Assembly: GCA_016186955.1 (NCBI GenBank)
Contig: JACPKP010000004.1
Location: 71,288-135,287 of the forward strand
DNA length: 64,000 nucleotides
Direction: 5' to 3'
Origin: Candidatus Daviesbacteria bacterium
GTDB taxonomy: Bacteria; Patescibacteriota; Microgenomatia; Daviesbacterales; UBA10151
Shown: one piece after another, positions 26,334-57,723 of the stretch
Layout of the letters: the number at the start of each line of letters is the position of its first letter
Position numbering within the stretch: the first letter of the stretch is position 1
The notes under the pieces: model-generated
The model's input: the letters and a program-made list of their open reading frames with translations, nothing else
Told to the model about the DNA's origin: nothing
Database searches by the model: none
Made by a program: the position numbers and the translations under genes

Positions 26334-26388
26334 TAACTAAACTATTTCACTTTCCAGCATTAAGATCAAGGGCACTGATATCTGGTAA

Positions 26389-26475
26389 CCCCGGAGCTGC
26401 AATATACCCCACATTCAGTTACATGAACGTGGAGCGAACGCTCAATATCTGTGAACCGCCTCAGACTAGAATCGA
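26389..26475. repeat. decayed copy of the tRNA-Lys 3' end plus ~55 bp of flanking sequence (att-like direct repeat)
   Basis: 'ccccggagctgcaatatacc...gagcgaacgctcaatatctgtgaaccgcctc...atcgaacacc' matches 27295-27375. Confidence 0.55.
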
Positions 26476-26490
26476 ACACCTTCTCTCCCA

Positions 26491-27213
26491 CTATAGTTTT
26501 TTGATTGTCGGAAGGACATTAGGCCATAAAACTTTTCCTGTGTTATCGTAAATAGGAACTCTGGCTGTAGGACTTTTTGTAGTAGCCGCTAACATGTTAT
26601 CTTTGGCCATTTGAACTAGTTCTTCAAAAGAGAGAACCTTCCCATAAACTGTAGTCATAATATCATTGATTGTTCCCCGCTCACCTGTGCTTTTGAGTGG
26701 TATATTTCTAATAGTGGTATCTCCTAGACTCCTTGCATAATTAGAGCCTCCGAACTTGCCCTCTAATTCTCTTTGGTATAATTCACCAACTACCTTATCT
26801 AAAACTACTCCTTGAATGGATGATAAAGGAACCATATTCGCCCTTTTATGCCCAAGGGGTATTAAAGGATGGTCTTTTACTAAATGAGGTGTTACTGTGC
26901 TATCTATGAGAAGGTAGGTGTCATAAAGACCTCTCCAAGTTAATCCCTTACCAGCAAATGCATTTTCTTGGGTTTCTTCTATGTATATATAGTCACCAGC
27001 ATCTCTACGAGTAGCAGCTTTTCCACCAGATGTGCCAAGATAACCGGCAACAGCCTGTTCCGACTCGGGAGTTAGGCCTGTGCTAAAAATACCAGTTAGA
27101 TTTTCTACAAATGTACCATGGACAATTAATCCTGGTTTTTGTATATCTATGATTTTACTTTTAACTTCTTCTTCCCAATTAGCATGAGGCAGCTCGTCTG
27201 ACAGTAGGTACAT
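26491..27213 (-). CDS. hypothetical protein, a single-gene islet bracketed by tRNA-Lys 3'-end repeats
   Basis: 240-aa ORF with no recognised motif. Confidence 0.45.
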   Translation of the reverse strand: MYLLSDELPHANWEEEVKSKIIDIQKPGLIVHGTFVENLTGIFSTGLTPESEQAVAGYLGTSGGKAATRRDAGDYIYIEETQENAFAGKGLTWRGLYDTYLLIDSTVTPHLVKDHPLIPLGHKRANMVPLSSIQGVVLDKVVGELYQRELEGKFGGSNYARSLGDTTIRNIPLKSTGERGTINDIMTTVYGKVLSFEELVQMAKDNMLAATTKSPTARVPIYDNTGKVLWPNVLPTIKKL

Positions 27214-27240
27214 CAGGTGATTATATCAAAACCAAACTGT

Positions 27241-27257
27241 GAGCCGCCTCGGGATCG
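27241..27257. repeat. second short copy of the tRNA-Lys 3' end ('gagccgcctcgggatcg')
   Basis: Identical to 27352-27368, as read from the sequence. Confidence 0.5.
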
Positions 27258-27350
27258 TTAGTAGTACGGCGAGGCAAGAGGGAGTCTGATGTGACCCCGG
27301 AGCGACAATATACCACTCACCTGCGGTGAGTAGCGAACGCTCAATATCAG

Positions 27351-27424
27351 TGAGCCGCCTCGGGATCGAACCGAGAACCTACTCCTTAAGAGGGAGTTGC
27401 TCTAGCCAATTGAGCTAGCGGCCC
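27351..27424 (-). tRNA. tRNA-Lys (anticodon CUU)
   Basis: The reverse complement is GGGCCGCTAGCTCAATTGGCTAGAGCAACTCCCTCTTAAGGAGTAGGTTCTCGGTTCGATCCCGAGGCGGCTCA. It folds as a cloverleaf with anticodon loop CTCTTAA. CCA is not encoded. Confidence 0.85.
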
Positions 27425-27427
27425 AAA

Positions 27428-27628
27428 CTATTCATCTGCTTCATCTTCTGTCAGATCCTTCCGGGAGTCTAGTTCTTTCAGGTTGCCATCAGGATCCGGT
27501 CTTAGCCCTGCTTGTTCTAGCGCCTGATCCACATCAACTACATCCTCAGACGGTTCACCCTCTGCCTGTTCGTCTAGCTTTTGGAGCACATCATGTTTTT
27601 GCTCTTCACTGTTATCCAGGCCAATCAC
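27428..27628 (-). CDS. hypothetical acidic small protein
   Basis: 66-aa Asp/Glu-rich ORF of low complexity. Confidence 0.2.
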   Translation of the reverse strand: MIGLDNSEEQKHDVLQKLDEQAEGEPSEDVVDVDQALEQAGLRPDPDGNLKELDSRKDLTEDEADE

Positions 27629-29904: not shown

Positions 29905-30340
29905 TTGGCGCCCCTGGAGGGGTTTGAAGAGGGCTGCGGGGTTTACCCCGCAGCCCACCAAGACCTTAGTCAAAACTATCGTAAGGTCCCATGTCTATGG
30001 TACGGCCGCAACACAGGCAAAGAGCCACCTGGTAGCCGAAAGTTGTGGTTATGAGTCTAGTCCTCCCACATTTCCGGCACCGTTGGTCCTGTACCTTTTC
30101 GCGGCGGGCCATTGGTTGGGTGCAGCAGCTCGTATGCCCGTAAACCAGGGTTCCCAAGAACCCCGGATCGGGCTCGTAGCGTACCTGCCCAACGTTTTCC
30201 CACTCCGGCGAGTGGTTCAGACACATGCCGTGAGGACACGGGGAGTGGGATTTCTGAACCACCTGCTTGCCATGGTCCATGGCAAACCTCCTTATTTGCT
30301 CACCCTTTTACAGGGTGACGCAGGCATTTTATAGTAAACT
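29905..30340. ncRNA. GC-rich, highly structured ~430-nt non-coding segment next to tRNA-Arg. It is a candidate structured RNA or a foreign GC-rich insert.
   Basis: GC content is very different from the flanks, and multiple perfect hairpins occur, for example 'gggctgcggggtttaccccgcagccc'. Six-frame ORFs overlap on both strands, which indicates non-coding sequence. No RNase P or tmRNA signature was recognised by eye. Confidence 0.35.
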
Positions 30341-30359: not shown

Positions 30360-30435
30360 TGGCGCGCCTGGAGGGAGTCGAACCCCCAACCCCGTGGTCC
30401 GAAGCCACGTGCTCTATCCATTGAGCTACAGGCGC
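30360..30435 (-). tRNA. tRNA-Arg (anticodon UCG), with encoded CCA
   Basis: The reverse complement is GCGCCTGTAGCTCAATGGATAGAGCACGTGGCTTCGGACCACGGGGTTGGGGGTTCGACTCCCTCCAGGCGCGCCA. The anticodon loop is CUUCGGA. Confidence 0.85.
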
Positions 30436-42978: not shown

Positions 42979-44258
42979 ATGAACGAGATTTAATTTCCAA
43001 AATTTATAAATCCATTTGTGATCTCCTTGGAGAAAACAATTGCATACAAATAGGTTCTTACCCCCGTCGTACAGCCATTACACCTGTTCACGATTTAGAT
43101 GTGCTTTATGTAATTGGCAATTGGGACGAGAACAGCCACGATCCCTCGACAGTATTACAAAACCTAGCCTCGCGATTTAACGATTATGTTAATCCGACTT
43201 CCTACAGCGTAGAATTGGGACCACCACAATCTCATTCGATTACAATCTTATTTAAGGACAATGCAGGTAAAGAAATACTTTCCATTGATATTGTTCCCAC
43301 ATACATTTTTTCGAAAAATGAATTTAATGAAGATACTTATAAAGTACCTGAAATTGCACGAAGAAGGCATGGGAAAAAGAGGACTCAATACTATCAAGAG
43401 CTTTCACTACAACATAAGGAAATGGGTTGGGTTGTTTCTGATCCAAGGGGATATATCCATGTTGCCTCCGAAACCGATACAGTAACGGGTGGTGAGTTCA
43501 GAAAAACTGCAAAGGTAGTTAAAAGGTGGAAAAATAATTTAGTGGCGGAAGATGAAAACCTTAAATTACAGTCTTTCCACATTGAACAGGTAATTACAAA
43601 TTACTTTAGAGAAAATAATTCACTTGAAATATTTGATGCTGTTTTTAATTTTTTTCTTGAGTTACCGGAAATTATAGATAATCCTAATCAAATTAAGGAT
43701 CGCGCTAATAATGGTAAATTCATTGACGATTATCTTGAACAATTTACCGACGAGCAAAAGAGCAAAATTAGAAGCGCGCGTGATGGATTTTTTATCAAAC
43801 TCGAAAGTTTCGGAGAAAATAATTCTATAGAGCAGCTATTTGAAATACTCTTTTATTCCAGAAAACCCACAGAGGAGTTTTTATTTGATAAAGGCATTAA
43901 GACATTTATTGATAACAGCTTAAAATTTAGGATTGATGGGTTTGTTAAACCGCTTTCGGGTTTTACTTCTGGCTGGTTAACAGAAACACCACATTTACAA
44001 AACGGTCTTACGAGAGGCGGAACCAAGAAAAGATATATAGAATTTAGAATAAGAAAGAACGAAACGCCTGCAGAAGAATATAGATGGAAAGTAAAAAATT
44101 CTGATACCTGCTTTCAGCCAAGAGGAGAAATAACACTTAATCGCACAAGGAATGACCCAGAGAGTACAGAATATGCCGGAAATCACTACGTCGAGTGTTA
44201 TGCAATCAAAAATGGTGATTGTATTGCAAGATCAAAAGTTCCAGTAAAAATTCTTTAG
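42979..44258 (+). CDS. cGAS/DncV-like nucleotidyltransferase (CD-NTase)-type Pol-beta NTase. Its 5' end is disrupted by a 1-nt frameshift at a T run (~42989-42996).
   Basis: Just upstream of the called GTG start, the 'G[SG]...D.D' motif 'IGSYPRRTAITPVHDLDVLYVIG' lies in frame. A third acidic residue occurs in 'SIDIVPTY'. A ~300-aa helical C-terminal domain follows. The ATG at 42979, with an RBS-like 'aaagaaag' upstream, reads M-N-E-I-stop. Adding one T fuses it to the downstream frame. Confidence 0.55.
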
Positions 44259-44267
44259 AATTTAATT

Positions 44268-45041
44268 ATGAAGAAGAAACAGAAATTTTTAGTTCCGATA
44301 TATGGCTTAAAAAAGAGCCCGAAACAAAGCATTAAATTAGATAAAAGTATTCTAATAAGACCAGTTGATATTTTTGCAGAAGAACAAAAACACTTTGAGA
44401 AATTCGGTTTGAAAGGAAGTTATGATGGAGTGTTGGAAGTTAATTATGAGTACGATTCAGACAATCCCAGTGAACCCTTCCCTGGTCTCTTTATAAATTT
44501 AATCAATAAGATAGATGCTTCGCTAGTTGTCTATGGAGACGGAGTTGTGGGAGTCGCGGGCGTTGTCCCAGCTCCTAACGAAGAATTTTCGGGAGGGGGT
44601 ATTCTTTCGTCATCAACAAAACCCCAATATGAAGAAAAGCTAGACAAAGAGATTGATGAAAACTTTGCAGCTTACTATAAAAGATTTGTTAAAGCCTATG
44701 ATATGCGGCCAGTAGCATTTGATGTTTACAGGCGAAGTTGTGATAGGTTCGCCAATAATGATAGGACTATAGATAGCTGTATTATTCTGGAAAGCCTATT
44801 TGTTCCTCCTAGCGAAAGGTCTAAGAAATCCTTTATTCTATATGGATTAAATATCTTAAAGTTTAGTACCGATGAAATTAAGGCTATAGATGATTTAATT
44901 GAATATCGCAATGCGATTATTCATGCAGATAGGAAAAAGCAGCTTAAATTACTATCTGGATCAAAATATACACATAAGTGGTTCGAGGATACTTTCAAGA
45001 TAATACGCAGAATTCTTTATAAATACATTGAGAGTCCTTAG
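44268..45041 (+). CDS. HEPN-motif protein. The C-terminal Rx4H motif 'EYRNAIIHA' marks a putative RNase effector, and the N-terminal ~150 aa is uncharacterised.
   Basis: An Rx4-6H motif sits at the end of a predicted helical ~110-aa C-terminal domain. The gene starts 10 nt after the NTase stop, in an operon-like arrangement. Confidence 0.4.
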   Translation: MKKKQKFLVPIYGLKKSPKQSIKLDKSILIRPVDIFAEEQKHFEKFGLKGSYDGVLEVNYEYDSDNPSEPFPGLFINLINKIDASLVVYGDGVVGVAGVVPAPNEEFSGGGILSSSTKPQYEEKLDKEIDENFAAYYKRFVKAYDMRPVAFDVYRRSCDRFANNDRTIDSCIILESLFVPPSERSKKSFILYGLNILKFSTDEIKAIDDLIEYRNAIIHADRKKQLKLLSGSKYTHKWFEDTFKIIRRILYKYIESP

Positions 45042-45093
45042 AATTGAAATGAAACACTTTAATTTGTCGCCGTCAACACTAGGTTTATCTAAA

Positions 45094-45216
45094 ATATGGT
45101 TAAATTATCGAGGTCTAAGTTAGAATTATTATTCGACTGTCCCCGTTGTTTTTGGTTATCTTGACTTTCGGGCTATAGTCCTGAGTCTTGCCGAAGGGTA
45201 ATTTATGGTTTAAAGT
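45094..45216 (+). repeat. copy 1 of the ~125-bp cassette-junction repeat (micro-ORF 45096-45164, MVKLSRSKLELLFDCPRCFWLS)
   Basis: Direct repeat shared with 48442, 49566 and 50728. Confidence 0.85.
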
Positions 45217-45222
45217 AAACTT

Positions 45223-45372
45223 ATGGCTAATGCTAGAAAGTTGCTGGTTAAATCTACGATATCTAGATTAGAAAAGAAAGATATACTTACAGAAATGTTT
45301 GAGAACTTTGGGATTAAAGTAATTACTGTAAGTAATCAGAACTCTAAGTCTGATAGTAGTAAGAGAAATTGA
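45223..45372 (+). CDS. conserved 49-aa small protein (paralog of 48569-48718)
   Basis: 'KKDILTEMFENFGIKVITV' versus 'KRDILTEMFEHFGIKVVDV' in the paralog. Confidence 0.4.
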   Translation: MANARKLLVKSTISRLEKKDILTEMFENFGIKVITVSNQNSKSDSSKRN

Positions 45373-45381
45373 AATAATACT

Positions 45382-45627
45382 ATGAAAAACGATTATCAAA
45401 TTGTCACTTTTAAAGATAAGAAAATTCGCCGGCATTGGGATGAAAAAACGGAGAAATGGTATTTTTCGGTGGTGGATATTATTGCCAAGAATTATAACCT
45501 CTCCGCCAAAAATCCAAATAATACAAATTCGGCCGTATACAAATCACCAAATGAAATCCTTATAAATATCCAAAACTCTGAGAAAAAAGTAAACCAAATT
45601 TTATCTGAGATCAAAGATTTATTGTGA
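45382..45627 (+). CDS. hypothetical small protein (possibly Bro-N/antirepressor-like)
   Basis: 81-aa ORF with 'IRRHWDEKTEKWYFSVVDIIA'. Confidence 0.3.
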   Translation: MKNDYQIVTFKDKKIRRHWDEKTEKWYFSVVDIIAKNYNLSAKNPNNTNSAVYKSPNEILINIQNSEKKVNQILSEIKDLL

Positions 45628-45717
45628 TGTTTTACTCTGTTGGAGTGAATTACTTCTTGATTTTTTATCCGGTTATAGTGTATTATATATACAGTTAGCT
45701 CGTTTTAGCCTCAAAAT

Positions 45718-47190
45718 ATGGCAAATATTGATGTACAATTACTCGCCCAATTAAAAACCTGGAATCCTTGGTGGCAACAAGGCAAAGATGGTATAGCCAG
45801 ATATAATGACCCGGTCTACAAGCGAGAACTGTATAGTAATGTAATTAGTCAATATAAACAAGGTAATCAAATTGTAAGTATTGTTGGTATGCGGCAAGTT
45901 GGTAAATCAACACTTATGCGACAAGTTATAAAAGAGTTGTTGGATGAGGGAGTTGACCCAAAAACAATTTTGTATATTTCCTTTGATGACCCTTTCGTAC
46001 GCATAAAATATGATAAAAAAAAGATTTTTGACATTGTGGTACAAACTTTTATAGGAGGGTTACTTCAAGAAGATCTTGATTCTTATAAAGGTAAATTATA
46101 TTTTTTCCTGGATGAGATACATCAACTGCCTGAATGGGAGAAAACTCTCAAGACCTATTATGACCGTTCGTTCCCTATCAATTATATGGTGAGTGGCTCC
46201 TCTTCCCTTCACCTTCAGTCAAAAAATAAAGAAAGCCTGCTCGGGCGAATTTCAGAACATGTCCTTTGGCCATTTTCATTCAGGGAGTATTTTGAATATC
46301 ATTCTGGTCAAGAAAAACAGGTTTCCGAAATCATTGAGGAAGCAAGACAAATATACAATAAATATATTACTACATTTGATATGGCTGAAACGTACCCATC
46401 TCTACAAGAAACATATAAAAAAGCTTTTGTTTGGAGTAAGCAAATCATAGAATCAAATCTTCAAAGATTTATTGTTTGCGGGGGATTCCCCCGGGCATGG
46501 CAGCAGCCTGATTTTGTATCCAGGCAGCGGATTTTATGGGAACAGCATGTTGGAAAAGTAATTTTTGAAGATCTGGTGCAAGTAGCAAGTATACGGAAAC
46601 CACGTGACCTAGAGTTTTTATTTACTTACATTATTGAAAATAATGGGAAAGAAGTAAAACTTGGAGAAATGAAAAGGAATCTGAATATTCACTGGGAAAC
46701 TCTGGACCGATATTTAAGCTATCTCATAAGGACATTTTTAATATTCAGAATCGAAAGGACAAAAACAAAACGGCTACTTATTAAGAGAAGGTCAGGGAAT
46801 GTTAAATTCTATCTGACAGATGTTGCCCTCCGCAACGCATTTTATAATAAAACAGAAGATGTTTATTTTGATTCCGAAGAAATGTCTTTCATCTCTGAGA
46901 ACTTAGTTTGTACAACACTCCAGAGGTGGCTTCGTGGCCCAAAGCGTGAAGAACAGGTATCCTTTTATAAAGATAGAAGTGGAGAAGTAGATTTTGTGTT
47001 TAAAGGTTTTAATACAATTATCCCAATCGAAATTAAGTGGAGAAGTGACATACCTCCTTTGAAAACACTAAAAAAAGTAGAAAATGCTTGGGATGTTAGT
47101 CAAAGTATTTTAATTACTAAGGATCAAGATCTTGATCTAAGGAGTGGAAGATTATCAATACCATTATGGTTTTTCCTACTGTGTTTTTAA
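45718..47190 (+). CDS. AAA_14/DUF4143-family ATPase
   Basis: 'VSIVGMRQVGKSTLMRQV' is Walker A. The length and C-terminal DUF4143-like region fit the family. Confidence 0.8.
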   Translation: MANIDVQLLAQLKTWNPWWQQGKDGIARYNDPVYKRELYSNVISQYKQGNQIVSIVGMRQVGKSTLMRQVIKELLDEGVDPKTILYISFDDPFVRIKYDKKKIFDIVVQTFIGGLLQEDLDSYKGKLYFFLDEIHQLPEWEKTLKTYYDRSFPINYMVSGSSSLHLQSKNKESLLGRISEHVLWPFSFREYFEYHSGQEKQVSEIIEEARQIYNKYITTFDMAETYPSLQETYKKAFVWSKQIIESNLQRFIVCGGFPRAWQQPDFVSRQRILWEQHVGKVIFEDLVQVASIRKPRDLEFLFTYIIENNGKEVKLGEMKRNLNIHWETLDRYLSYLIRTFLIFRIERTKTKRLLIKRRSGNVKFYLTDVALRNAFYNKTEDVYFDSEEMSFISENLVCTTLQRWLRGPKREEQVSFYKDRSGEVDFVFKGFNTIIPIEIKWRSDIPPLKTLKKVENAWDVSQSILITKDQDLDLRSGRLSIPLWFFLLCF

Positions 47191-47196
47191 ATCTAT

Positions 47197-48420
47197 ATGA
47201 AAAATAACTGGCCAATTAAAAAATTAGGAGAGGTTTGTAAGGTTTTTGCTGATGGTGATTGGATCGAAAGTAAAGATCAGTCATCAAGCGGAATTCGTCT
47301 TGTTCAAACTGGGAATATTGGGAGGGGTATTTTTTTAAATAAAGGAGGAAAATCAAGGTTTATCTCTGAACAAACTTTTAAAAGGTTAAACTGTACAGAA
47401 ATTCTTCCAGGAGATTTGCTGATATCACGGTTACCTGATCCAGTTGGTCGTTCCTGTATAATTCCTGATACAGGAACAAAAATGGTAACAGCTGTTGATT
47501 GTACCATTGTCCGTGTGAATGAAAAATTAATACTTAGAGATTTTTTGCTGTTATACACAAATAGCTCAAATTACTACACTCAAATTCAAGCTCATTTATC
47601 AGGAACGACCCGCAAAAGAATAAGCCGAGGAAATTTATCACAAATTGAAATCCCTCTCCCACCACTTTCAGAACAAAAGAAAATTGTGGCGAAACTTGAG
47701 AAATTGTTGGCGAAAGTGAATGAAGCAAAAAAGCTCCGCGCTAAAGCGCAAGAAGCCGCGAGTCAGCTCCTCCCCGCCGAATTCCACAAAATTTTTGAAG
47801 AAGGAAGAGAAAAAGGATGGGAGGAAATAGATTTTGGTGATAAAAAATACATTGAGATTATAGATGGTGACCGAGGGAAAAATTATCCAAAAAAAAGTGA
47901 TTTTACACCTGAAGGCTACTGCCTTTTCTTAAATACAAGTAATGTAAGACACGGATCTTTTAATTTTTCTAAATGTGATTTTATTTCAAAGGAACGAGAT
48001 GAAATATTACGAAAAGGCAAATTGAAACGTGGCGATGTAATATTAACTACTCGAGGAACTCTCGGTAACTCTGCATTTTTTGATGATAAAGTACCTTTCG
48101 ACAATATGAGGATAAATTCTGGAATGGTTATATTGCGCGTTAATGAGAAAGTACTCACTCAACGTTTTTTACTGTATGTATTAAACTCACCAAATGTCAT
48201 GGATTTGATTAAGAAGGCGAACTCAGGCAGTGCTCAGCCGCAACTACCGATTCGTGTGTTATCAAAATACATTTTATACTTCCACCCATCACAGAGCAAA
48301 AAAAGATAGTTGCACGACTGGACTTAATTTCCGAAAAAGCGCGTCAACTTCAAGACTACCAAAAATCCACCGAGCGCGATCTCCTCACCCTCGAACAATC
48401 AATTTTACACAAGGCTTTTT
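47197..48420 (+). pseudogene. hsdS: type I restriction-modification specificity subunit HsdS with two target-recognition domains. It is frameshifted near the 3' end (~48265-48282, a T4 run), and no hsdM or hsdR is in the window.
   Basis: TRD1 ends with 'IPLPPLSEQKKIVAKLEKLL'. The frame stops at 48309, but the conserved 'ILPPITEQKKIVARLDLISEKARQL...' continues in another frame to 48420. One extra T restores the full-length protein. Confidence 0.8.
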
Positions 48421-48441
48421 AAGGAAGATTAGTAAATTAAA

Positions 48442-48563
48442 ATGATTAAATTATCAAGGTCTAAGTTAGAATTATTATTTGACTGTCCCCGTTGTTTCTG
48501 GTTATCTTGACTTTCGGGCTATAGTCCTGAGTCTTGCCGAAGGGTAATTTATGGTTTAAAGTG
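48442..48563 (+). repeat. copy 2 of the cassette-junction repeat (micro-ORF 48442-48510)
   Basis: Read from the sequence. Confidence 0.85.
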
Positions 48564-48568
48564 AGGTT

Positions 48569-48718
48569 ATGCTTAGCAAGAAAAATCCAGAGATTGAAAC
48601 GATAAAATCCAAACCTGAAAAAAGAGATATCCTGACGGAAATGTTTGAACACTTTGGGATTAAAGTAGTAGATGTAGGTTCTCAAATCCCAAAGGCCAAC
48701 AGGAAAAGAAAGGGATGA
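48569..48718 (+). CDS. conserved 49-aa small protein (paralog of 45223-45372)
   Basis: See the paralog entry above. Confidence 0.4.
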   Translation: MLSKKNPEIETIKSKPEKRDILTEMFEHFGIKVVDVGSQIPKANRKRKG

Positions 48719-48725
48719 AGTAAAG

Positions 48726-49565
48726 ATGAAAAAGATAATTACCAAAGGAATAAAAGTGTATACGTTTCAGCAAAATGAAATAGATTACATCTCCCTCACT
48801 GATATTGCCAGGTACAAAGATAAAGAAAGAACAGACTATATCATCCAAAATTGGATGAGGAATAGAGAAACTATAGAGTTCTTGGGTATTTGGGAACAAA
48901 TCAATAATACAAATTTTAAACCCATCGAATTCGATGGGTTAAGAAAAAATGCAGGATTAAATAGTTTTTCACTTACTCCTAAAAGATGGGTCTCTTCTGT
49001 CAATGCCATTGGCATTATTGCAAAATCGGGCAGATATGGAGGTGGGACATTTGCACACAAAGATATTGCTTTTGAATTTGCTTCCTGGATTAGCGCTGAA
49101 TTTAAGCTTTACTTGATTAAAGAATTTCAACGACTCAAAGTTGAGGAAAACGAGAGGTTAATTTTAGGTTGGGATGTTAAGCGTCAGCTGACCAAAATTA
49201 ATTATCTTATCCATACAGATTCCATTAAGGAAAACTTAATCCCTCTGTCAATTACTAAAAATCAAGCCAAAGTCATTTATGCCTCGGAAGCAGATATCTT
49301 GAACGTGGCTTTGTTTGGTAAAACCGCAAAAGAATGGCGCGATGAAAATAAGGATAAAGATGGTAATATCCGTGATTATTGTGACGTTACACAATTAGTA
49401 GTTTTGGCTAATCTTGAAGGTATTAATGCCGAGCTAATTCGTCAAGGCTTGCCTCAATCTAAGAGATTAGTTCAACTAAACCAGATCGCTATCTCCCAAA
49501 TGCAATCTTTACTTGGTAATGCCTCAATAAGCAAAGCTTTTCTACGAATAAAGAAATTAAAATAA
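48726..49565 (+). CDS. KilA-N domain protein
   Basis: 'ISLTDIARYKD...NWMRNRETIEFLGIWE...GGTFAHKDIAFEFASWISAEFKLYLIKEFQRL'. Confidence 0.75.
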   Translation: MKKIITKGIKVYTFQQNEIDYISLTDIARYKDKERTDYIIQNWMRNRETIEFLGIWEQINNTNFKPIEFDGLRKNAGLNSFSLTPKRWVSSVNAIGIIAKSGRYGGGTFAHKDIAFEFASWISAEFKLYLIKEFQRLKVEENERLILGWDVKRQLTKINYLIHTDSIKENLIPLSITKNQAKVIYASEADILNVALFGKTAKEWRDENKDKDGNIRDYCDVTQLVVLANLEGINAELIRQGLPQSKRLVQLNQIAISQMQSLLGNASISKAFLRIKKLK

Positions 49566-49686
49566 ATGATTAAATTATCGAGGGCTAAATTAGAATTACT
49601 TTTTGAATATCCCCGTTGTTTCTGGTTATCTTGACTTTCGGGCTATAGTCCTGAGTCTTGCCGAAGGGTAATTTATGGTTTAGAGT
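49566..49686 (+). repeat. copy 3 of the cassette-junction repeat (micro-ORF 49566-49634). It starts immediately after the KilA-N stop codon.
   Basis: Read from the sequence. Confidence 0.85.
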
Positions 49687-49695
49687 AGAATTTAT

Positions 49696-50727
49696 ATGAA
49701 AAAAGGCAGACAAATTATTAAACAAAATAGCTTCACCGAGTTTTTGCTTTATACAACGCCAAATGGAAAAGTAAAGGTAGAGATATTTCTTCATAATGAA
49801 AATATCTGGTTAACTCAATCTAAAATAGCAGAGCTTTTTGGAGTGCAGAGGCCGGCAATTACCAAGCATCTAAAAAACATATTTGAGACTATGGAGTTGA
49901 ACGAGAAATCAGTTAGTTCCATTTTGGAACATACTGCCAAAGACGGTAAGAAGTACAAAACCCTATTCTATAACCTTGATGCGATTATTTCGGTTGGATA
50001 CAGAATAAACAGCTCTCAAGCAACGCAGTTCCGTATTTGGGCAACAGAAAGACTTAAAGAATACATAATTAAAGGATTTACCATGGATGATGAAAGACTC
50101 AGGGATCCCTACAATATCTTTGGAAAAGATTATTTTGAAGAACAACTTGCCCGAATAAGGGATATACGTTCAAGCGAAAGGCGTATGTACCAGAAGATCA
50201 CTGATATTTACGCACAATGCAGCGCTGATTACGATCCAAATGAAGAAATTACCAGGCAATTTTTTGCGACAGTGCAAAACAAACTCCATTTTGCGATTAC
50301 CAATAAAACTGCCGCAGAGATAATACACGAAAGAGTAGATAGCGCCAAACCATATATGGGGCTCACTGTTTGGAAAAATTCTCCAAAAGGTGCTATTCGG
50401 GAATCCGATGTCATTATTGCCAAAAACTATCTTAATGAAAAAGAACTGGATCATTTAAATAGAATTGTTACCATGTATCTTGATTATGCAGAAATGCAAG
50501 CCGAGCGTGGGATTGTCATGTATATGAAGGACTGGGTAGCAAAGCTGGACGCCTTTCTTAAATTTAATGAGCAACAAATACTTAGTGACACTGGACTCAT
50601 AAGCCACGAGGTTGCAGAATCTCTGGCCTTGAAAGAATTTGAAAAATATCGCAGGGAGCGGGACAAAAACTACATATCAGATTTTGACCGCGAAATGAAA
50701 AAACTTTTGAAGAGAGCAAGGAAATAA
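49696..50727 (+). CDS. RhuM-family protein
   Basis: 'YNLDAIISVGYRINSSQATQFRIWATERLKEYIIKGFTMDDERL' is the hallmark RhuM block. Confidence 0.85.
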   Translation: MKKGRQIIKQNSFTEFLLYTTPNGKVKVEIFLHNENIWLTQSKIAELFGVQRPAITKHLKNIFETMELNEKSVSSILEHTAKDGKKYKTLFYNLDAIISVGYRINSSQATQFRIWATERLKEYIIKGFTMDDERLRDPYNIFGKDYFEEQLARIRDIRSSERRMYQKITDIYAQCSADYDPNEEITRQFFATVQNKLHFAITNKTAAEIIHERVDSAKPYMGLTVWKNSPKGAIRESDVIIAKNYLNEKELDHLNRIVTMYLDYAEMQAERGIVMYMKDWVAKLDAFLKFNEQQILSDTGLISHEVAESLALKEFEKYRRERDKNYISDFDREMKKLLKRARK

Positions 50728-50787
50728 ATGATTAAATTATCGAGGTCTAAATTAGACTTACTTTTTGAATGTCCCCGTTGTTTCTGG
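50728..50787 (+). repeat. copy 4 (truncated) of the cassette-junction repeat. It starts immediately after the RhuM stop codon and diverges into GC-rich sequence.
   Basis: Read from the sequence. Confidence 0.8.
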
Positions 50788-50902
50788 GAGCGGGTGAGGG
50801 GAGTAACAACCTTTCGTTTCGCGAAAGAACGTTGCCCCGATAAATCGGGGTCGAACAGCTTTGCACTCCGTGCTGCGCAGCCTAACTCTCCAACCACCCT
50901 TT

Positions 50903-50935
50903 CAAACAGAAAAACTGGCCACAAGGACCAGTTTT
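50903..50935 (+). terminator. rho-independent terminator
   Basis: 'aaaaACTGGccacaaggaCCAGTtttttg' is a hairpin followed by a T6 run. Confidence 0.55.
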
Positions 50936-51158
50936 TTGTTCGAGAGCGGGTAATGACAATCTGTTCGAACTTTATTTAAAAACCTTTAATGGTTTGATGC
51001 AATGTTTTAGACCCTACCCTCAGGTTTATTCTTTTTGATGCTTGATGTGTTTTTAAACTTAAGGCCTTCTACAAAATCCTCTAATACTGTCGTTAATCTG
51101 GTTAAAAATTAATCCATATTTTCTGACATTAGATTATCTGTGACGGTTACTTTATGTT

Positions 51159-51362
51159 TCATGAACCAAAAAGAAAATGCCACATCTTTTCTACAAGAAA
51201 CCAACCAAAAAACCCTGCAATAACATATAATGGGAACCGCTTAAACTCTCCTAATATCTCTTTAATCTCGTTTAATACACCATTCTGGTAAGATATTTGC
51301 TCACTAAGTGTTTCCAATTGTTCTTCTAAATTTTCTAAGCTTTTTTTATCCATTTTTAACAT
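51159..51362 (-). CDS. hypothetical small membrane protein
   Basis: 67-aa ORF with a C-terminal TM segment. Confidence 0.3.
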   Translation of the reverse strand: MLKMDKKSLENLEEQLETLSEQISYQNGVLNEIKEILGEFKRFPLYVIAGFFGWFLVEKMWHFLFGS

Positions 51363-51595
51363 TCTACCATAAATTTGACTTTCGGGTAACCTATGGTATT
51401 ATTAAAATAATAATTACTTTGCTTCACAAAAAGCGGTAATTAGGTTTTAGATTTGCTGGGTCTTTAGAAGGAGCACAGGAATCTAGGAATCTGACGTTCA
51501 CTTAAGAAAAAGAAATGCGGTCGCAAGACAAACAGCTTTTTCACTTGGACTATTGCAGGTTCTTGGACTTTTGTGCTTTTTTAATGTAAAAAAAT

Positions 51596-52111
51596 ATGCA
51601 AACTTTTGAGTGGAAAACAGACAACCTAGACGAAATGGCCGTGAGAATGGCTCAAATTAGAAAAAATCAAACTGAAGAAACTGAGGCAATCAATTTTAAC
51701 AGGGACTCTAACCCCTTAAATGGTGGAGAAGCTGGTGGGGCGACAGAGGGGATGTGGAAGTACCTTAAAGAGGCACAGGGTGATAACAATAAGGAAAAGT
51801 TCATGGAAGCTAACTCGACTGGTGCTGCTATTGACCGTTTGAGGGAGCAAAAGACAGAGGGGAAAAAGGAAGATTCCAGGACCCAATGGCAAAAAGATCA
51901 AGATATGGCAAGGGAGTTGAGGAATCCTAACTGGAGAGCAGAGTACGAGGCTTCAAGAGGTTTTGATAGGGCCGAATATTTGGCAGCGTTGCCAGTAGTA
52001 CAGAATGGAAAAACATATCATAAAGACGGCAGGGTGTGGGCCCGACAGGATTGGGATGCACTAAAGGAAAAACATGGACAACCGAAGCATTATCAGGGAA
52101 AGGAGGGTTAA
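51596..52111 (+). CDS. hypothetical protein in the mobile/phage-like block
   Basis: 171-aa charged, helical ORF. Confidence 0.4.
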   Translation: MQTFEWKTDNLDEMAVRMAQIRKNQTEETEAINFNRDSNPLNGGEAGGATEGMWKYLKEAQGDNNKEKFMEANSTGAAIDRLREQKTEGKKEDSRTQWQKDQDMARELRNPNWRAEYEASRGFDRAEYLAALPVVQNGKTYHKDGRVWARQDWDALKEKHGQPKHYQGKEG

Positions 52112-52114
52112 TTT

Positions 52115-52300
52115 ATGAAGACAGCAAATGATAGATTTTTTGTACATAATATTGAGTTCGAGCCTGATGCCGGAGCAGAAATGCTCAAGAAACAATGGGC
52201 GATAGGTTTGGATACAAAGAATCATGGAAAATTAAGTGGAGAGCGGAAACGAAGTGCCTATGCTCAGAAAGCTAATAACTCTTTGACAGGAGAAAGATAA
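52115..52300 (+). CDS. hypothetical small protein
   Basis: 61-aa ORF 3 nt after the upstream stop. Confidence 0.3.
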   Translation: MKTANDRFFVHNIEFEPDAGAEMLKKQWAIGLDTKNHGKLSGERKRSAYAQKANNSLTGER

Positions 52301-52303
52301 GAT

Positions 52304-53368
52304 ATGGCTATACCATTGCAACTCTTACCTAATGTCTTTAATGCAGCCCAAAAAGCTGTAGGACAGCTATCCCAACCCGTATATCAGGTAGGGAAAACAG
52401 CACAACAATTTTTTAATCCAGGTGGAAATGCACCCCAGCGATTCGGTCCTGTTAACCCCCCAACAGATCAGGGTGATTATCTAGAGCAAGTCCCCTCAAT
52501 GAACATTCCAGAATTGGATCTAAGCCCATACATCGAGCAGCAACAGCGGGAAATGGAGCTGGCACAAGCCGGATATAGCGAAAATATTGCAGAAATAGGA
52601 TCGCAGACTGAAAAACAAAAGGGGCTAATCGAAGCAAACAAACAATCGGCCTTGGGTGATCTGGCCTCAAGCCAGGAACAATCACAAAACACTGCGGAAA
52701 GGGCAATCAATGAAGCAAGGAGGGCGCAGGCGGAATTATCTCAGGGATTATCAGCCAGATATGGTACAGGTGTATCAACAGGTCTTGGAGCTCAAGCGAT
52801 CCTGGGAGCTCAAACAGTCAAAAATATTGGGGAGACTCGCCAGAGCCTAGCTGCAAGATTGGGAGAAATTCAAAAAAGAAAAGAACAGGTAACAAACGAA
52901 GCTAACAGACTGGTACTAGATGCTGACCAACAAGCGGAAGTATTGAAACAAAGAGCTTCGGTTGCCTTGAAAGAGGGTTTGGCAGCAGCCAGTAGGTACA
53001 GACTAGAAGGAACTCGCGCCAGGCAGGATCTTATAAATTCATATATGAGCCAGTACCGGGATATTGTTGCAGGGGTCAACGCTAGAAATGCAGCTTTTAA
53101 GCAGGCTATCGCAAAACAATTAATGGCTAATGAAATTTCTCTGAATAAATATTACCAAACTACAGCTACTGCAAGAGATACTGTAGATTTAAATGATAGA
53201 TTTGCATTATATAAAGCTGGAAAATTGTCTGCCCCGGCAGTTGACCAGCTTGAGCAAGACGCACAACTCCCTTCGGGTTCTCTGATCAGATCAACAGAAA
53301 TAGACGAAAACGATCCTTTCGCTGGATTGAAGAAAATCTCACAGGTTGGGATTGGTAATCTTGCATAA
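52304..53368 (+). CDS. hypothetical coiled-coil protein (phage structural or scaffold-like, tentative)
   Basis: 354-aa Gln/Ala-rich helical sequence tightly packed with its neighbours. Confidence 0.4.
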   Translation: MAIPLQLLPNVFNAAQKAVGQLSQPVYQVGKTAQQFFNPGGNAPQRFGPVNPPTDQGDYLEQVPSMNIPELDLSPYIEQQQREMELAQAGYSENIAEIGSQTEKQKGLIEANKQSALGDLASSQEQSQNTAERAINEARRAQAELSQGLSARYGTGVSTGLGAQAILGAQTVKNIGETRQSLAARLGEIQKRKEQVTNEANRLVLDADQQAEVLKQRASVALKEGLAAASRYRLEGTRARQDLINSYMSQYRDIVAGVNARNAAFKQAIAKQLMANEISLNKYYQTTATARDTVDLNDRFALYKAGKLSAPAVDQLEQDAQLPSGSLIRSTEIDENDPFAGLKKISQVGIGNLA

Positions 53369-53374
53369 TTATGT

Positions 53375-56300
53375 ATGGCACTTCCCTTTTTATCGGATAT
53401 AGAACAAAAAATCACAGATGCTAGAGATGCAGCGCAACGCATTTTGAAGCAACCTCAAAATTTTATTCAAGGTTTTAAACCCTCCGCAATAAATACCCTA
53501 AACACAATTACAAAAGCTGTATCAAGCTATCTGCCACAGTATGCACCCCAAACCCAACAGGTTAAGCCACAACCATTGTCTGCAATTAGAAAACAAGCAG
53601 AGAATTATTTAAACGCAGGATTAAACACAGCACAAAATTATGGAAACTATTTAAAGACTGAGGGGAGAAGATTGACCAGCCCGGAGTTCTTCAAACCAAA
53701 ATTCACTTTCGCAGATGAAATTAAAAATCCAGTGCTTAATTTTGCTGCACAGATCCCTCAATCTATTTTAAACGCACCCATTAACACAGGCGAGGGATTA
53801 GTTAATCTACCCAGGTCAAAATCCCCACAACAGGTTATTTCTAACGCAGCCAAGATTGCAGACTTACCCCTAACTTTGGCTACTTTTGGAGCTGGGGGCA
53901 CTGCTTTAAATATTGGCAAGCAAGGATTAAAGTCATCAATTTTGAAAGGTGGGTTAGAAGGGTTAAAATACGGTGCTGCTTATGGTGGTTTGTCTGGTTT
54001 GCGGGAAGGCGAGAATCTTAATTTGGAGGAACAATTAAGAATAGGGGCTGAAAGGGCAGTATTGGGTGGTGTAGGAGGGGCGGTTGTAGGGGGAGTGGTA
54101 CCATTGGTAGGTTATGGAATTGATAGGGGCGGTAAATTTGTTGTAAAAATCATGGGAGATGAAAAGGGTTTTGTTAAAATTCCGGGTAAAAAACCACCTA
54201 TTTTAGCAAAAGCGATTGAAGACGCAATTAATGGTGATGATTTAGCAAAAGCCCAGGATATTATTGACAAGTTACCTGATAAAAACCCCTATAAAGCCCC
54301 GTTTCAAAGCACACTAAATGCTCATATTAAAAACCAAAGTACAGCAGGGAAATATTCATACAATATCAATTTAGACAGACTAAAGCTATCGCCAAAAGAA
54401 AAAAAGGTTTTCGACACAAGAATTTCTACTGCAAAAAACATACTAGAAAAAGCCAAGGGGCAGAAGCTAACGGATGAAGAAGTGATTAATGCTGCAAAAA
54501 CCTCAGAGATTTTACAAAACGTAACTTCTAGGGAAGACACAGTGAGAGCTAATGCTGCTATGCTTAGAGCCCGCCAAAATATGGTTGAGCTTGATAAAAA
54601 CCTTGATGTTTACATTAAAAAAGGAAATGTCTTAAAAGCCCGGACAACAATGGCCGATTTGGTTGACTCTCTTAGGGTTGTTTCTTCTGAAGCAGCGGAC
54701 AGAGGACGGAAATTACAGAGCTTGTCTATTGAAGCCGGAGATGAAAGTTTAAGAAGTCAGGTTTTAAGAAGTATTGCTCGAGTTGAAAATGATAGCAACA
54801 GGATAGCAAAAGAAGCCTTAAAAGTTAACTGGAATAATGCAAACTCGATTACTACTTTCTACCGGCAGTTTGTCAAACCCAGCACAGGGGAGATATTGGA
54901 TGAGTTTAGGTATAATAACATCCTCTCTAATCCTCTTACCCACGAACGGAACGCATTTTCAAATCTCATCCAGACCTTTATATCAAGACCACTAACCCTG
55001 GTAGTACAAGGTGATATAAGCGGTGCAGGCAGATATTACAAAGGTGCGTTTGGGAGTTTTCCTGATGCTATAAAAGCATTTCAGGACTCGTTTTTAGGGA
55101 AGGGATTGATTCAAAAGCCCGATTTATCGAGGTTATCGACCAAAAAAATACCGGGAGCCTTGACAATCCCCACCAGGGCAATGGAGGCCTCAGACAGATT
55201 TTTTCAAACAATAATCTCATCCGGTGAAAGAGCACGAGGTGTCAGCAGCAAAGAAGCGGAAAAGATAGCCCAGTATTCACTATTCAGATCCATTTTAGAC
55301 CCTTCAAATAGAACAGGGCAGGGAGTGTTATTATCAAAAATTGATAACGCTACATTGGGAATTTACCAACTGGGGGAGAAGGTGCCAGGTCTCAGATGGT
55401 TCGTTCCTTTTTTGCAAACTCCGATGAATGTCGCAAAACAGTGGCTTGAATATTCCCCAGGGGGTTTTGCGACAATCCCGGGAGCAGCCAAGCCAAAAGA
55501 ACAAATTGCAAAAGCCGTGATTGGATCGGTTATAACTGCGATGGGTGGTTGGTTAGCCAGTCAAGACAAAACAACCTGGTCAGCCCCGGTTGACCCTAAA
55601 GCAAAAGAGCTTTTCTATGCTTCAGGCAGGAAACCTTTTAGTATTAAGGTGGGTGATGCTTGGGTGCCAATGCCATTTTTAGGGGTGTACGCCTTTCCGG
55701 TTGCGTTAGCTGCTGCTGCAAAGTATTATCAGGATGAGTCCAGAACGGCATTGACTGATTCACAGATTGAGAGGTTGACCAAAGGGGTGTTTTCTATGAC
55801 TGAGTTTTTTAGTCAACAGACTTTTATGGAGGGGCTTGGTAATTTCGTTTCTCTGGTCAAAGGTGATAAAGATTATTCTCTGCCGGCAAACCTGGCATTT
55901 ACCGCACAACAGATAATACCCTTAAATGGGCTGGTAGGTTACATAAGCCGAATTTTAGATCCTATCTTCAGGAAAGCAGATGGTGAAGGTATTGGTGGTA
56001 AATTTATTGCTGGAGTCCAAAGGAATATTCCATTTCTCTCAAGTGGGCTTCCGGCTTATACAAACCCCTTGGGTGAGGAATCCAGACGGAACATTTCAAG
56101 CTATCTTGCGCCCTATGCTTTGGGAGTTCAAGACAAGAGGTTTGAACAACAGTATCAGGGTAGGGAGATCTTGCTACAAAGTAATGATGTTTTGAATAAA
56201 ATCGATGATGCGATAGTAAATGGGAGAGTACCAACAGGGGATCCGGCATTAGTTGAATTTAGGCAAGCGGAATACTATTACAAAAAAATATTAAACAGAG

Positions 56301-56578
56301 AAGCTTCCGTTGATGATCTAATCTCACAAGATAAAATTACCAAAGGGTTGGCAGAGAAAATACTAATTATTAGAAACCTTGATAAAAACTTGAAAATTTC
56401 CTCACAAGATAGGATGTTACCATTTTTTGAGCCAAAGATTAAAGCTGAACGGATATTACAAAGATTACAGGACTTTGAAAGCGGAAAAGGGAAGAAAGAA
56501 TATCTGGAAAAATTGATTAGGAATAAAATTATTGATCCTGAAACAGCTAGGCTTATATTAGAGCAAACTCCTCAGTGA
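53375..56578 (+). CDS. large (1067-aa) hypothetical protein with a Gly-rich segment. A tail/tape-measure-like or transfer-related role is speculative.
   Basis: 'GGVGGAVVGGVVPLVGYGIDRGG' is present. The ORF has a long uninterrupted reading frame and operon-like packing. Confidence 0.45.
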   Translation: MALPFLSDIEQKITDARDAAQRILKQPQNFIQGFKPSAINTLNTITKAVSSYLPQYAPQTQQVKPQPLSAIRKQAENYLNAGLNTAQNYGNYLKTEGRRLTSPEFFKPKFTFADEIKNPVLNFAAQIPQSILNAPINTGEGLVNLPRSKSPQQVISNAAKIADLPLTLATFGAGGTALNIGKQGLKSSILKGGLEGLKYGAAYGGLSGLREGENLNLEEQLRIGAERAVLGGVGGAVVGGVVPLVGYGIDRGGKFVVKIMGDEKGFVKIPGKKPPILAKAIEDAINGDDLAKAQDIIDKLPDKNPYKAPFQSTLNAHIKNQSTAGKYSYNINLDRLKLSPKEKKVFDTRISTAKNILEKAKGQKLTDEEVINAAKTSEILQNVTSREDTVRANAAMLRARQNMVELDKNLDVYIKKGNVLKARTTMADLVDSLRVVSSEAADRGRKLQSLSIEAGDESLRSQVLRSIARVENDSNRIAKEALKVNWNNANSITTFYRQFVKPSTGEILDEFRYNNILSNPLTHERNAFSNLIQTFISRPLTLVVQGDISGAGRYYKGAFGSFPDAIKAFQDSFLGKGLIQKPDLSRLSTKKIPGALTIPTRAMEASDRFFQTIISSGERARGVSSKEAEKIAQYSLFRSILDPSNRTGQGVLLSKIDNATLGIYQLGEKVPGLRWFVPFLQTPMNVAKQWLEYSPGGFATIPGAAKPKEQIAKAVIGSVITAMGGWLASQDKTTWSAPVDPKAKELFYASGRKPFSIKVGDAWVPMPFLGVYAFPVALAAAAKYYQDESRTALTDSQIERLTKGVFSMTEFFSQQTFMEGLGNFVSLVKGDKDYSLPANLAFTAQQIIPLNGLVGYISRILDPIFRKADGEGIGGKFIAGVQRNIPFLSSGLPAYTNPLGEESRRNISSYLAPYALGVQDKRFEQQYQGREILLQSNDVLNKIDDAIVNGRVPTGDPALVEFRQAEYYYKKILNREASVDDLISQDKITKGLAEKILIIRNLDKNLKISSQDRMLPFFEPKIKAERILQRLQDFESGKGKKEYLEKLIRNKIIDPETARLILEQTPQ

Positions 56579-56817
56579 GTGTTTGGGTAATCTTCGGGAC
56601 TTGAAGCCGAAATAGACGGTATTTTGGGCTTTGTATGGCCAGAAAACGGAAGAGATCCAGAGGGTAGGAATATATCTAAGGAAAAAAGTTATAATCCCCT
56701 ATTATTTTTTTCAATGATTAAATTGTTAGCTTCAAGGTAGGACCAAAAATCACCATAAAAAGATTTCTCAACATTTTTAGCTAGGAAATTAAAACGGGAG
56801 TAAAATAGCTTCAAAAA

Positions 56818-57723
56818 TCATTTCCCAACATTCCCGGGGTAAACAGATTTATAAATATCTTCTAATTCCTGGTTTGTGTGGTGCAAATATAACTCCGAAG
56901 TCTGTATGCTGCTATGCCCCAAGAATTTGCTCACATGATAGATGCTGATCCCGTGATTTAATAAATTTGTTGCATAGGAATGTCTTAAGCTATGCGGGGT
57001 TAAACTAACCCCCACTTTCTCACCAGCCTGCTTGACTAATCTTTCGATATGAGTAGGGGTTAAATCAAAAAGCTTATTACTATTTTTCTTTCTAGCTGCC
57101 AGATATTTTTTAATTAGGATGGCGGTTTCGGGGGAGAACTGGATTAACCGCGGTTTTGACCCCTTGCCAAGAATGGTTGTTCTTCCATTTTCAAGATCTG
57201 GTTTAGCTACCTCTAGGGAAACGAGCTCCGATATTCTCAAACCGGAGGTTTGGAGAAGAGACAAAATTGTTTTTAGCCGTAGACCCTTTTTATTTCTGAG
57301 GTCTAAAGAAGCAATCAATTTTTCAATATCTTCGGGGTTGGGGATCTCTTTATACATCCGAACCACCTTAGGCAACTCAATAGCTTCAGCGTCCAGACAA
57401 TCGATTTTCTGGAGCCTTAACCACTTTAAAAGCTGCCGGATTGCAATTAGCTTCAAAGATTGGGTTTTTGGGTTAAGTTTTTGATCTAGCATTATTACCC
57501 GGTAGTCTTCTATGGTTGCTAAGGTAATTTGCTGAATGGGTTTATCTGGACCTGTGAATTTACAGAAGTCTAAAAGGTGTTGTGAGTATTTTTTAACAGT
57601 CCCCAAGCTCTTTTTTTGTGTTAGTGTTAGACTTTTAACATAAACTTTTATTGCCTGGCTTAGGGTTGTTTGAGAATTTTGGTCAAAATTAGTATAATTC
57701 ATATAGTTGTCCGGTTCTGTCAT
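56818..57723 (-). CDS. tyrosine recombinase/integrase (XerD/phage-integrase family)
   Basis: C-terminal 'LRHSYATNLLNHGISIYHVSKFLGHSSIQTSELYLHH' carries the HxxR...Y catalytic motif. An N-terminal SAM-like domain is present. Confidence 0.85.
   Translation of the reverse strand: MTEPDNYMNYTNFDQNSQTTLSQAIKVYVKSLTLTQKKSLGTVKKYSQHLLDFCKFTGPDKPIQQITLATIEDYRVIMLDQKLNPKTQSLKLIAIRQLLKWLRLQKIDCLDAEAIELPKVVRMYKEIPNPEDIEKLIASLDLRNKKGLRLKTILSLLQTSGLRISELVSLEVAKPDLENGRTTILGKGSKPRLIQFSPETAILIKKYLAARKKNSNKLFDLTPTHIERLVKQAGEKVGVSLTPHSLRHSYATNLLNHGISIYHVSKFLGHSSIQTSELYLHHTNQELEDIYKSVYPGNVGK

Follow-up and report, generated by a model that had tools for sequence, protein, structure and literature searches.

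Transfer RNA (tRNA) genes are classic landing sites for mobile DNA. To our knowledge, integration at such sites has been little mapped in the Candidate Phyla Radiation (CPR)/Patescibacteria, bacteria with tiny genomes that are known almost only from metagenomes. Here we describe a slot at the tRNA-Lys(CUU) gene of a Candidatus Daviesbacteria metagenome-assembled genome, representing an uncultured groundwater bacterium of this group, in a stretch of 64,000 nt (contig JACPKP010000004.1, positions 71,288 to 135,287; hereafter the window). The slot lies between a gene for a 66-residue protein and capA, and holds an intact tRNA-Lys gene, four displaced 3′ fragments of tRNA-Lys genes and one cargo gene, the open reading frame (ORF) ORF240. 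It is probably a tRNA-Lys(CUU) integration hot spot occupied by a decayed, recombinase-less mini-island.

In regard to described systems, the islands in tRNA genes (tDNAs) collected in Islander are marked by an intact tDNA and a displaced 3′ fragment at the island ends (PMC4383910). The recorded sublocations comprise 2,083 anticodon-centred sites and 1,836 sites in the T-stem region, and 3′ fragments are present in 3,760 of 3,919 islands (PMC4383910). The Lys locus resembles these islands in having an intact tRNA gene at one end and cognate 3′ fragments downstream, in direct orientation and several in tandem. The fragment X2 has an anticodon-centred start and the fragments of the Y type start in the T-stem region, and the occupancy of the slot varies, with the segment replaced in the related genome CAZFVS01 and an alternative junction in the Logan contig L005. 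On the other hand, the Lys interval has no integrase gene, which the Islander definition includes, measures only ~0.9 kb with one cargo gene, combines fragments of two tRNA-Lys alleles, and carries a palindromic T-loop insertion in two of these fragments.

Cis-mobilizable elements (CIMEs) are decayed integrative and conjugative elements (ICEs) or integrative and mobilizable elements (IMEs) which retain the attachment (att) sites attL and attR but no longer possess the genes for integration and transfer (PMC5704250). Accretion often places them in tandem, and one hot spot in streptococci is the tRNA-Lys CTT gene (PMC5704250). Likewise, our locus lacks a recombinase and adjoins a tRNA-Lys(CTT) gene at the 3′ end of the latter; att-like tRNA fragments flank ORF240, and their tandem, accreted arrangement implies that integration was serial and was followed by decay. 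It differs from CIMEs in its far smaller size, its CPR host and the lack of conjugation genes in view. Furthermore, X3 and Y3, which belong to its putative att-like sites, have diverged, and phage and plasmid collections yielded no relatives. The feature belongs to a known kind, that of decayed tDNA islands or CIME-like islets, and comes from a phylum that has been little studied.

Organization of the tRNA-Lys slot

Read along the tRNA strand, the slot consists of the intact gene (allele T1), Y1, X2, the promoter-like element TGATATAAT with ORF240, X3 and Y3, and capA follows about 50 nt further on (Table 1). All four displaced 3′ fragments are in direct orientation, X2 and X3 being of the T1 type and Y1 and Y3 of the type of another allele, T3. 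The X fragments begin at the anticodon stem and the Y fragments 2 nt before the T-stem. Two X-Y units, spaced 906 nt apart, bracket the cargo gene; X2 has no Y partner, unlike X1-Y1 at the intact gene and X3-Y3. The packing is tight throughout, as T1 begins 3 nt past the stop codon of the 66-residue gene, and ORF240 lies 25 nt and 4 nt from the neighbouring tRNA fragments, X3 starting 4 nt beyond its stop codon.

Table 1. Features of the tRNA-Lys slot, of its counterparts in related populations and of other parts of the window (window coordinates unless a contig is named)
Feature	Coordinates	Strand	Basis or description
Whole variable segment	26384..27428 (1,045 bp)	.	blastn comparison with L032 and L007
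66-aa gene upstream of tRNA-Lys (NCBI HYW46_02905)	stop codon at 27429		
tRNA-Lys(CUU), allele T1, intact	27351..27424 (start 27350/27351)	-	ARAGORN; Rfam tRNA model (Infernal), 63.6 bits
Y1, displaced T3-type fragment	27292..27349	-	L005 comparison; fold; phage tRNA match
X2, decayed T1 fragment, anticodon stem to 3′ end	27239..27288	-	alignment; direct reading
TGATATAAT, extended -10 promoter-like element	27220..27228	-	6 nt upstream of ORF240 ATG; direct reading
ORF240, 240-aa orphan protein (NCBI HYW46_02895)	26491..27213	-	dN/dS, GC3, family and motif searches
X3, decayed T1-like 3′ fragment	26451..26486	-	26/35 identical, ungapped
Y3, second T3-type T-arm and acceptor fragment	26385..26450	-	alignment (spacing 906), block scans, fold
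L005, Logan contig (SRR12113384, in two samples)	L005 1-59		strain-variant junction of T3 to X2 and ORF240
L032 (CAZFVS010000086.1), sister slot	L032 1-4734		4.5 kb replacing the 1,045-bp segment
L032 spacer	68 nt		
L032 tRNA-Lys(CUU), allele T2	L032 124-196		58/76 identical to T1
L032 large serine recombinase, 610 aa	L032 157-1989	-	Resolvase, Recombinase, Zn_ribbon_recom domains; CcrB/XisF-like
L032 RsmC-like methyltransferase	L032 2865-3410		
L032 several orphan ORFs			including a 218-aa ORF with a T3 fragment in its 3′ end
L032 decayed T3-type fragment AGGTATTTGTTGAGCGTTCG	L032 3819-3838		19/20 against T3 anticodon stem to T-loop; score 35, shuffle maximum 28, 0/300
tRNA-Arg(TCG)	30360-30435	-	other tRNA in the window, 3 kb from tRNA-Lys
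104-aa Cys-rich ORF in tRNA-Arg islet	29966-30280	-	AAGGAGG Shine-Dalgarno; no Pfam hit
AGS_C sensor-domain protein	43101-44258		
AAA_14/DUF4143 protein	45718-47190		
Type I restriction-modification specificity subunit	47197-48309		
KilA-N protein	48726-49565		
RhuM protein	49696-50727		
Tyrosine recombinase, 301 aa	56818-57723	-	
D5-like primase	59803-61362		

A preliminary description of the locus had reported the tRNA-Lys gene, a 17-bp copy of its 3′ end at 27241-27257, a longer direct repeat (26389-26475 against 27295-27375), and the bracketing of the ORF by these repeats. ARAGORN and Infernal agree on the tRNA, the ORF coordinates hold, and both repeats are real and somewhat longer than described. 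In the short copy, 27239-27257 and 27350-27368 are identical at 19/19 positions, and the 18-mer GATCCCGAGGCGGCTCAC occurs exactly twice in the 64 kb, two matches being found in 0 of 100 shuffles. A further match of 10/10 at 27276-27285 to the 5′ strand of the anticodon stem and the loop (ACTCCCTCTT) extends this fragment, X2, to ~27239-27288. Its interior, between the 10/10 anticodon block and the 19/19 3′ end, is scrambled by indels; the local alignment score of this middle copy is 38, against a shuffle maximum of 25. X3 is decayed as well, and its T-arm is no longer able to pair.

The longer repeat is a gapped one of ~100 nt (26388-26486 against 27294-27385) with a local alignment score of 67 and a shuffle maximum of 23. 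Two blocks within it, GATATTGAGCGTTCGCT (17/17) and GGTATATTGnnGCTCCGGGGT (19/19 specified bases), occur in the window only at the two repeat sites and are matched in 0 of 100 shuffles. Computational alignment relates the repeats to the tRNA, so that a lack of relation to it, considered in the preliminary description, does not apply. What had been described as ~55 bp of flank actually corresponds to T3's T-arm and acceptor 3′ strand with a hairpin inserted, and the supposed two decayed copies are four fragments from two alleles.

Y1 begins with TGATA (C-TGATA after T1), followed by TTGAGCGTTCG, which represents the last two bases of the variable loop, the 5′ strand of the T-stem and the start of the T-loop. 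Then come a palindromic insertion of 28 nt (27306-27333) and TCGCTCCGGGGTCA, comprising the 3′ strands of the T-stem and the acceptor stem and the discriminator. The hairpin reads CTACTCACC-GCA-GGTGAGTGG, continues into TATATTG and stands in place of two T-loop bases; in the fold, the outer stem GAGCG/CGCUC surrounds a 10-bp hairpin. Y3 follows the same order, with AGATA, TTGAGCGTTCG, a palindromic insertion of 35 nt (26400-26434) and CAGCTCCGGGGTTA-C, and its hairpin has nothing in common with that of Y1 except the basal pairs and the TATATTG tail. In L005, T3 is present without interruption (TTGAGCGTTCGAGTCGCTCCGGGGTCA) and joined to the same downstream DNA as Y1, which identifies the Y fragments as T-arm and acceptor sequence of T3. 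The T-arm/acceptor string GAGCGTTCGAGTCGCTCCGGGG is also found in bona fide phage-borne tRNA genes, where it forms the T-arm and acceptor of ordinary tRNAs, which confirms Y as a tRNA-type sequence. The X-Y junction, CAC(A/T)GATATTGAGCG, is shared by both units, and the X-Y composite with its T-loop hairpin must therefore be older than its duplication, which is the one fixed point in the order of events.

Several other identities of Y were considered and rejected. It is not a remnant of a gene end, as its translation contains stop codons and tblastx against L032 matched the tRNA alone. Dispersed palindromic repeats, such as repetitive extragenic palindromic sequences (REP), miniature inverted-repeat transposable elements (MITE) or palindrome-associated transposable elements (PATE), would require multiple dispersed copies, and the Y blocks and hairpins are confined to this locus in the 64 kb, with only chance matches in public scans; an IS200/IS605 origin was rejected as well. 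An integron gene cassette is excluded by the absence of the attC core and inverse-core (RYYYAAC ... GTTRRRY), the conserved Y ends being tRNA T-stem, and no IntI integrase was found among the window ORFs scanned. Separately, a 13/13 inverted match, TGAGTGGTATATT (26694-26706 against 27307-27319), connects the Y1 hairpin, in its 3′ arm and tail, with a site within ORF240, and may be due to chance.

The slot in related populations

A CapA-based scan of GTDB species genomes returned a single close relative, CAZFVS01, with 86% identity in CapA and a locus divided between the contigs L007 and L032. The other 24 CapA loci all showed identities of at most 56%, and no tRNA-Lys was found near CapA in the 17 of them scanned for tRNAs; in the protein database, the closest CapA homologue is 69% identical. 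In blastn comparisons, homology between the window and CAZFVS01 ends at 26383 towards capA and, at the other end, with the stop codon of the 66-residue gene at 27429, which means that the whole segment between them, tRNA included, has been replaced. The last 53 nt of the 66-residue gene (window 27429-27481, L032 1-53) are 100% identical, in contrast to 82-90% in the neighbouring homologous DNA, and this stretch could be the border of a tract exchanged by recent recombination. Another Logan contig, L181 (SRR12113383), stops exactly at 27429.

The sister slot contains its own tRNA-Lys(CUU) allele, T2, with the 3′ end of a large serine recombinase gene overlapping the tRNA 3′ end. Elements of this CcrB/XisF-like kind share with our locus the position directly downstream of tRNA-Lys(CUU), but the window slot has no serine recombinase. 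Serine recombinases do not make long direct repeats, and such an enzyme therefore does not explain the X and Y fragments. Further inside the sister slot lies a decayed T3-type fragment. A 13-nt match in L032, when read against X-Y, was marginal (29, shuffle maximum 38) and rejected, being significant only with T3 as the query.

A different variant, from a co-occurring strain, is seen in L005, which is 100% identical to window 27306-26446 except that its first 44 nt differ. The contig starts with AATGGTAGAGCA-GTGCC-CTCTTAA-GGCAT-TTGTT-GAGCG-TTCGAGT-CGCTC-CGGGGTC-A, in which the tRNA-Lys(CUU) allele T3 is recognized from the 3′ side of its D-arm through anticodon arm (CTT), variable loop and T-arm to the acceptor 3′ strand. 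It thus holds the 3′ two-thirds of T3, joined directly to X2 and ORF240. The junction falls exactly in a 15-nt block formed by the T-stem 3′ strand and the acceptor, GTCGCTCCGGGGTCA, where a T-arm-type att site would recombine. As the k=31 graph of Logan cannot link across 15 shared bases, the junction is not a chance join.

Altogether, one slot seems to hold three tRNA-Lys(CUU) alleles with three different contents in organisms apparently from one aquifer study. The preliminary description had allowed for the gene and its repeats being the same in all relatives; instead, the segment is replaced in CAZFVS01, and in L005 the gene is joined to a third tRNA-Lys allele.

Origin of the islet

In the scenario that we favour, small integrative elements would have entered the tRNA-Lys slot more than once. 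Each integration would push the old 3′ part of the tRNA gene downstream, the incoming DNA bringing a replacement, and repeated insertions with loss of the element interiors could leave a stack of 3′ fragments. The events would have been catalysed by site-specific recombinases, presumably of the tyrosine type as the fragment boundaries suggest, whose genes were deleted later. The cassette may now be immobile, or movable only with help in trans. In the preliminary description, the locus had been explained by repeated integration and excision at a tRNA that left a one-gene islet. The scars and the variable slot support this account; integration and excision themselves are inferred from the scars, since the islet has no integrase.

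Several observations weigh against such an origin. No recombinase gene is present in the islet, where ORF240 is the sole ORF of at least 50 aa and has no recombinase domain according to Pfam, NCBIfam and PHROGs. The comparison is built on one close relative and one short variant contig, with no sign of an empty site or of a circular form, and L005 begins inside the T3 tRNA, without the 5′ end of T3 or its upstream neighbour. The acceptor stems of T1, T2 and T3 differ, which bars their interconversion by replacement of the 3′ half alone, so that whole tRNA genes must also have been replaced, whether by homologous exchange across the flanking genes or by tRNA genes that elements brought in. We know of no integrase that leaves palindromic T-loop insertions such as those of Y1 and Y3 as a by-product. 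Finally, the long X-Y duplications could also stem from homologous (Campbell-type) recombination.

This last point leads to an alternative which we consider unlikely, namely a local duplication without site-specific recombination. The X-Y unit would have been doubled by unequal crossing-over or by Campbell-type homologous integration of a circular DNA bearing an X-Y homologue, the copies would then have decayed, and ORF240 would have arrived or been trapped between them. Such an origin agrees with the lack of an integrase and with the extension of the ~100-nt duplicated unit beyond the T1 gene, the X-Y junction being alike in both copies. However, every copy is a 3′ fragment that starts at a canonical att sublocation, a 5′ half is kept in none of them, X2 has no Y partner, and the junction block of L005, with its 15 nt, is short for RecA-mediated exchange. 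In the sister genome, a recombinase-bearing element occupies the slot, and the tRNA-Arg gene of the window has an analogous 3′-end repeat (see below).

Alternatively, although this seems to us quite improbable, the cassette might still be mobile. The 906-bp unit of X2, promoter, ORF240, X3 and Y site would then act as a cis-mobilizable cassette with no integrase of its own, and a chromosomal tyrosine recombinase would recombine its T-arm-derived, hairpin-bearing Y sites in trans. This would account for a cassette that abuts T1-Y in one strain and intact T3 in another, and L005, suggestively, joins it to the other allele exactly at the T-stem-3′/acceptor block. The close spacing of ORF240 to both fragments, the tyrosine recombinase encoded in the window (Table 1) and the comparable one-ORF insert at tRNA-Arg would also suit a mobile cassette. 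Yet that recombinase looks Xer-like and lies 29 kb off, the junctions known are of only two types, and neither circular forms nor empty sites nor additional copies were found. The divergence of X3 and Y3 from X1 and Y1 suggests that the event is old. Apart from chance matches, the Y motif is absent from the JGI metagenomes and from IMG/VR: the exact two-block pattern gave only 3 unrelated high-GC chance matches in the former, and in the latter a 17-mer matched only phage coding sequences (FDIERSL) and the T1 3′ end was absent, a 14-mer scan being too unspecific to inform.

A still bolder extension, to which we give very little weight, is that the 906-bp unit at tRNA-Lys and the 454-bp one at tRNA-Arg belong to a class of tiny recombinase-less single-gene cassettes at tRNA 3′ ends, moved in trans via mimics of the T-arm and acceptor, with ORF240 as a new effector of the ADP-ribosyltransferase fold. 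If true, the cassettes would be an integron-like system on tRNA-derived sites, which at tRNA-Lys would bear a palindromic hairpin of variable sequence where crossover in the T-loop takes place.

It is equally doubtful that Y has been kept for a function, its T-arm-derived stem and hairpin serving as a terminator or processing signal after tRNA-Lys and after ORF240. The flank blocks of Y are conserved at 36/39 positions, compared with 26/35 in the adjacent X fragment, and the hairpin apex, wholly different between the copies, pairs nevertheless, both copies folding alike. On the other hand, the folds of the hairpins, formed on the tRNA strand, have modest z-scores of just -1.8 and -1.9, no U-tract follows them, the terminator scan gave 0 terminators, and Rfam had no match for Y at gathering thresholds or at E <= 10. 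Both hairpins and the Y blocks occur in the window at this locus only. Quasipalindromes stay paired neutrally via template-switch correction, and the differing apices therefore need not mean selection. A functional Y would moreover leave X2, L005 and L032 unexplained, and it is compatible with a decayed integration islet rather than opposed to it.

An error of assembly or binning is extremely improbable, since, despite the metagenomic source of the window and the Logan contigs that break inside the tRNA-Lys gene, independent Logan assemblies match the gene and its flanks base for base (ORF240 and flanks at 100% identity in five; 27378-26267, including both Y units, at 100% in four single-run assemblies), and k=31 graphs would neither collapse nor be misjoined at repeats as short and diverged as these.

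The cargo gene, other parts of the window and significance

ORF240 is a genuine gene, as its ratio of nonsynonymous to synonymous substitution rates (dN/dS) is 0.16 against P0002, its only close homologue (65% identity). Its GC content at third codon positions (GC3) of 0.27 is the lowest among 41 window ORFs (mean 0.384, standard deviation 0.056) and fits a foreign origin. The position of TGATATAAT would imply a leaderless or near-leaderless mRNA; the element is not in the list of the promoter scan, which demands a -35 element, and the closest homologue, on contig L006, has TGCTATAAT upstream. No homology beyond this possible -10 box was found when the L006 flanks were aligned to the window. 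All homologues lie in other contexts, and no tRNA was called on the short contigs of the three that were scanned (all but the one on L158).

The family is small. Among 5.8 billion proteins, a word-indexed search brought up a single relative, and exhaustive HMMER against 1.84 billion representatives gave 4 hits, adding P0125 and the C-terminal domain of P0124; an Hcp repeat protein among these hits is spurious. With P0126, added by a profile search, the homologues total four, and none comes from phage, plasmid or IMG/VR collections. In P0124 (674 aa; L158, ENA ERZ23498901), the ORF240-type domain forms the C-terminal ~175 residues and the N-terminal 500 residues have no Pfam match, an arrangement that hints at a modular effector or toxin head.

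The family shares an N-terminal motif, PGL-IVHGT-VENL--I---G (LIVHGTFVENLTGIFSTGL in ORF240), and a C-terminal one, VPIYD--GKVLWP (VPIYDxxGKVLWP). Comparison with toxin and effector families, proposed in the preliminary description, gave only sub-threshold matches, with a hint of a Tpt1/DarT-like motif. ORF240 matches Tpt1/KptA at E = 0.016 (15.7 bits, cut-off 26) over residues 20-60 only, P0125 matches DarT at E = 0.0011 (19.2 bits, threshold 22.5), and solved Tpt1 structures in the PDB were reached at E = 0.62. Three of the five family members match Tpt1 or DarT at the N-terminal motif. The resemblance consists of the N-terminal beta-strand, HGT and helix motif, whereas the rest of ORF240 has no detectable similarity; neither family threshold was reached. 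AlphaFold2 models were unusable, with predicted local distance difference test (pLDDT) values of 30 and 37, PADLOC reported nothing for ORF240, PHROGs gave one match at E = 0.11, and no DarG-like or antitoxin-like partner gene lies beside it. As a tentative assignment, the best candidate would be a transferase of the ADP-ribosyltransferase fold that uses nicotinamide adenine dinucleotide (NAD+).

At the other tRNA gene of the window, tRNA-Arg(TCG), the part from the T-loop to the CCA end has a direct copy (19/23, 0 of 100 shuffles) at 29906-29928, 454 nt downstream. The bracketed 431 nt have 58% GC, compared with 40% in the background, and fold beyond shuffles (z = -6.7), with no Rfam match. 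They contain the Cys-rich ORF of 104 aa, reported by Logan's gene caller only. The insert could be a foreign gene or a novel structured RNA. Farther away, 43101-61362 is a cluster of defence and mobile-element genes, with low GC3 in the ORFs of the 43-50 kb part (0.28-0.32 up to 49565).

The practical value of the locus is modest, as it offers a marker of strain variation and draws attention to a possible new family of NAD+-dependent transferases, made up of ORF240 and its four relatives, and it brings no new mechanism unless the cassette proves mobile. For the biology of these bacteria, it means that the same slot has turned over between sister populations, apparently in one aquifer, that integration scars can be resolved to individual tRNA arms, and that a single orphan gene can persist as the sole cargo.

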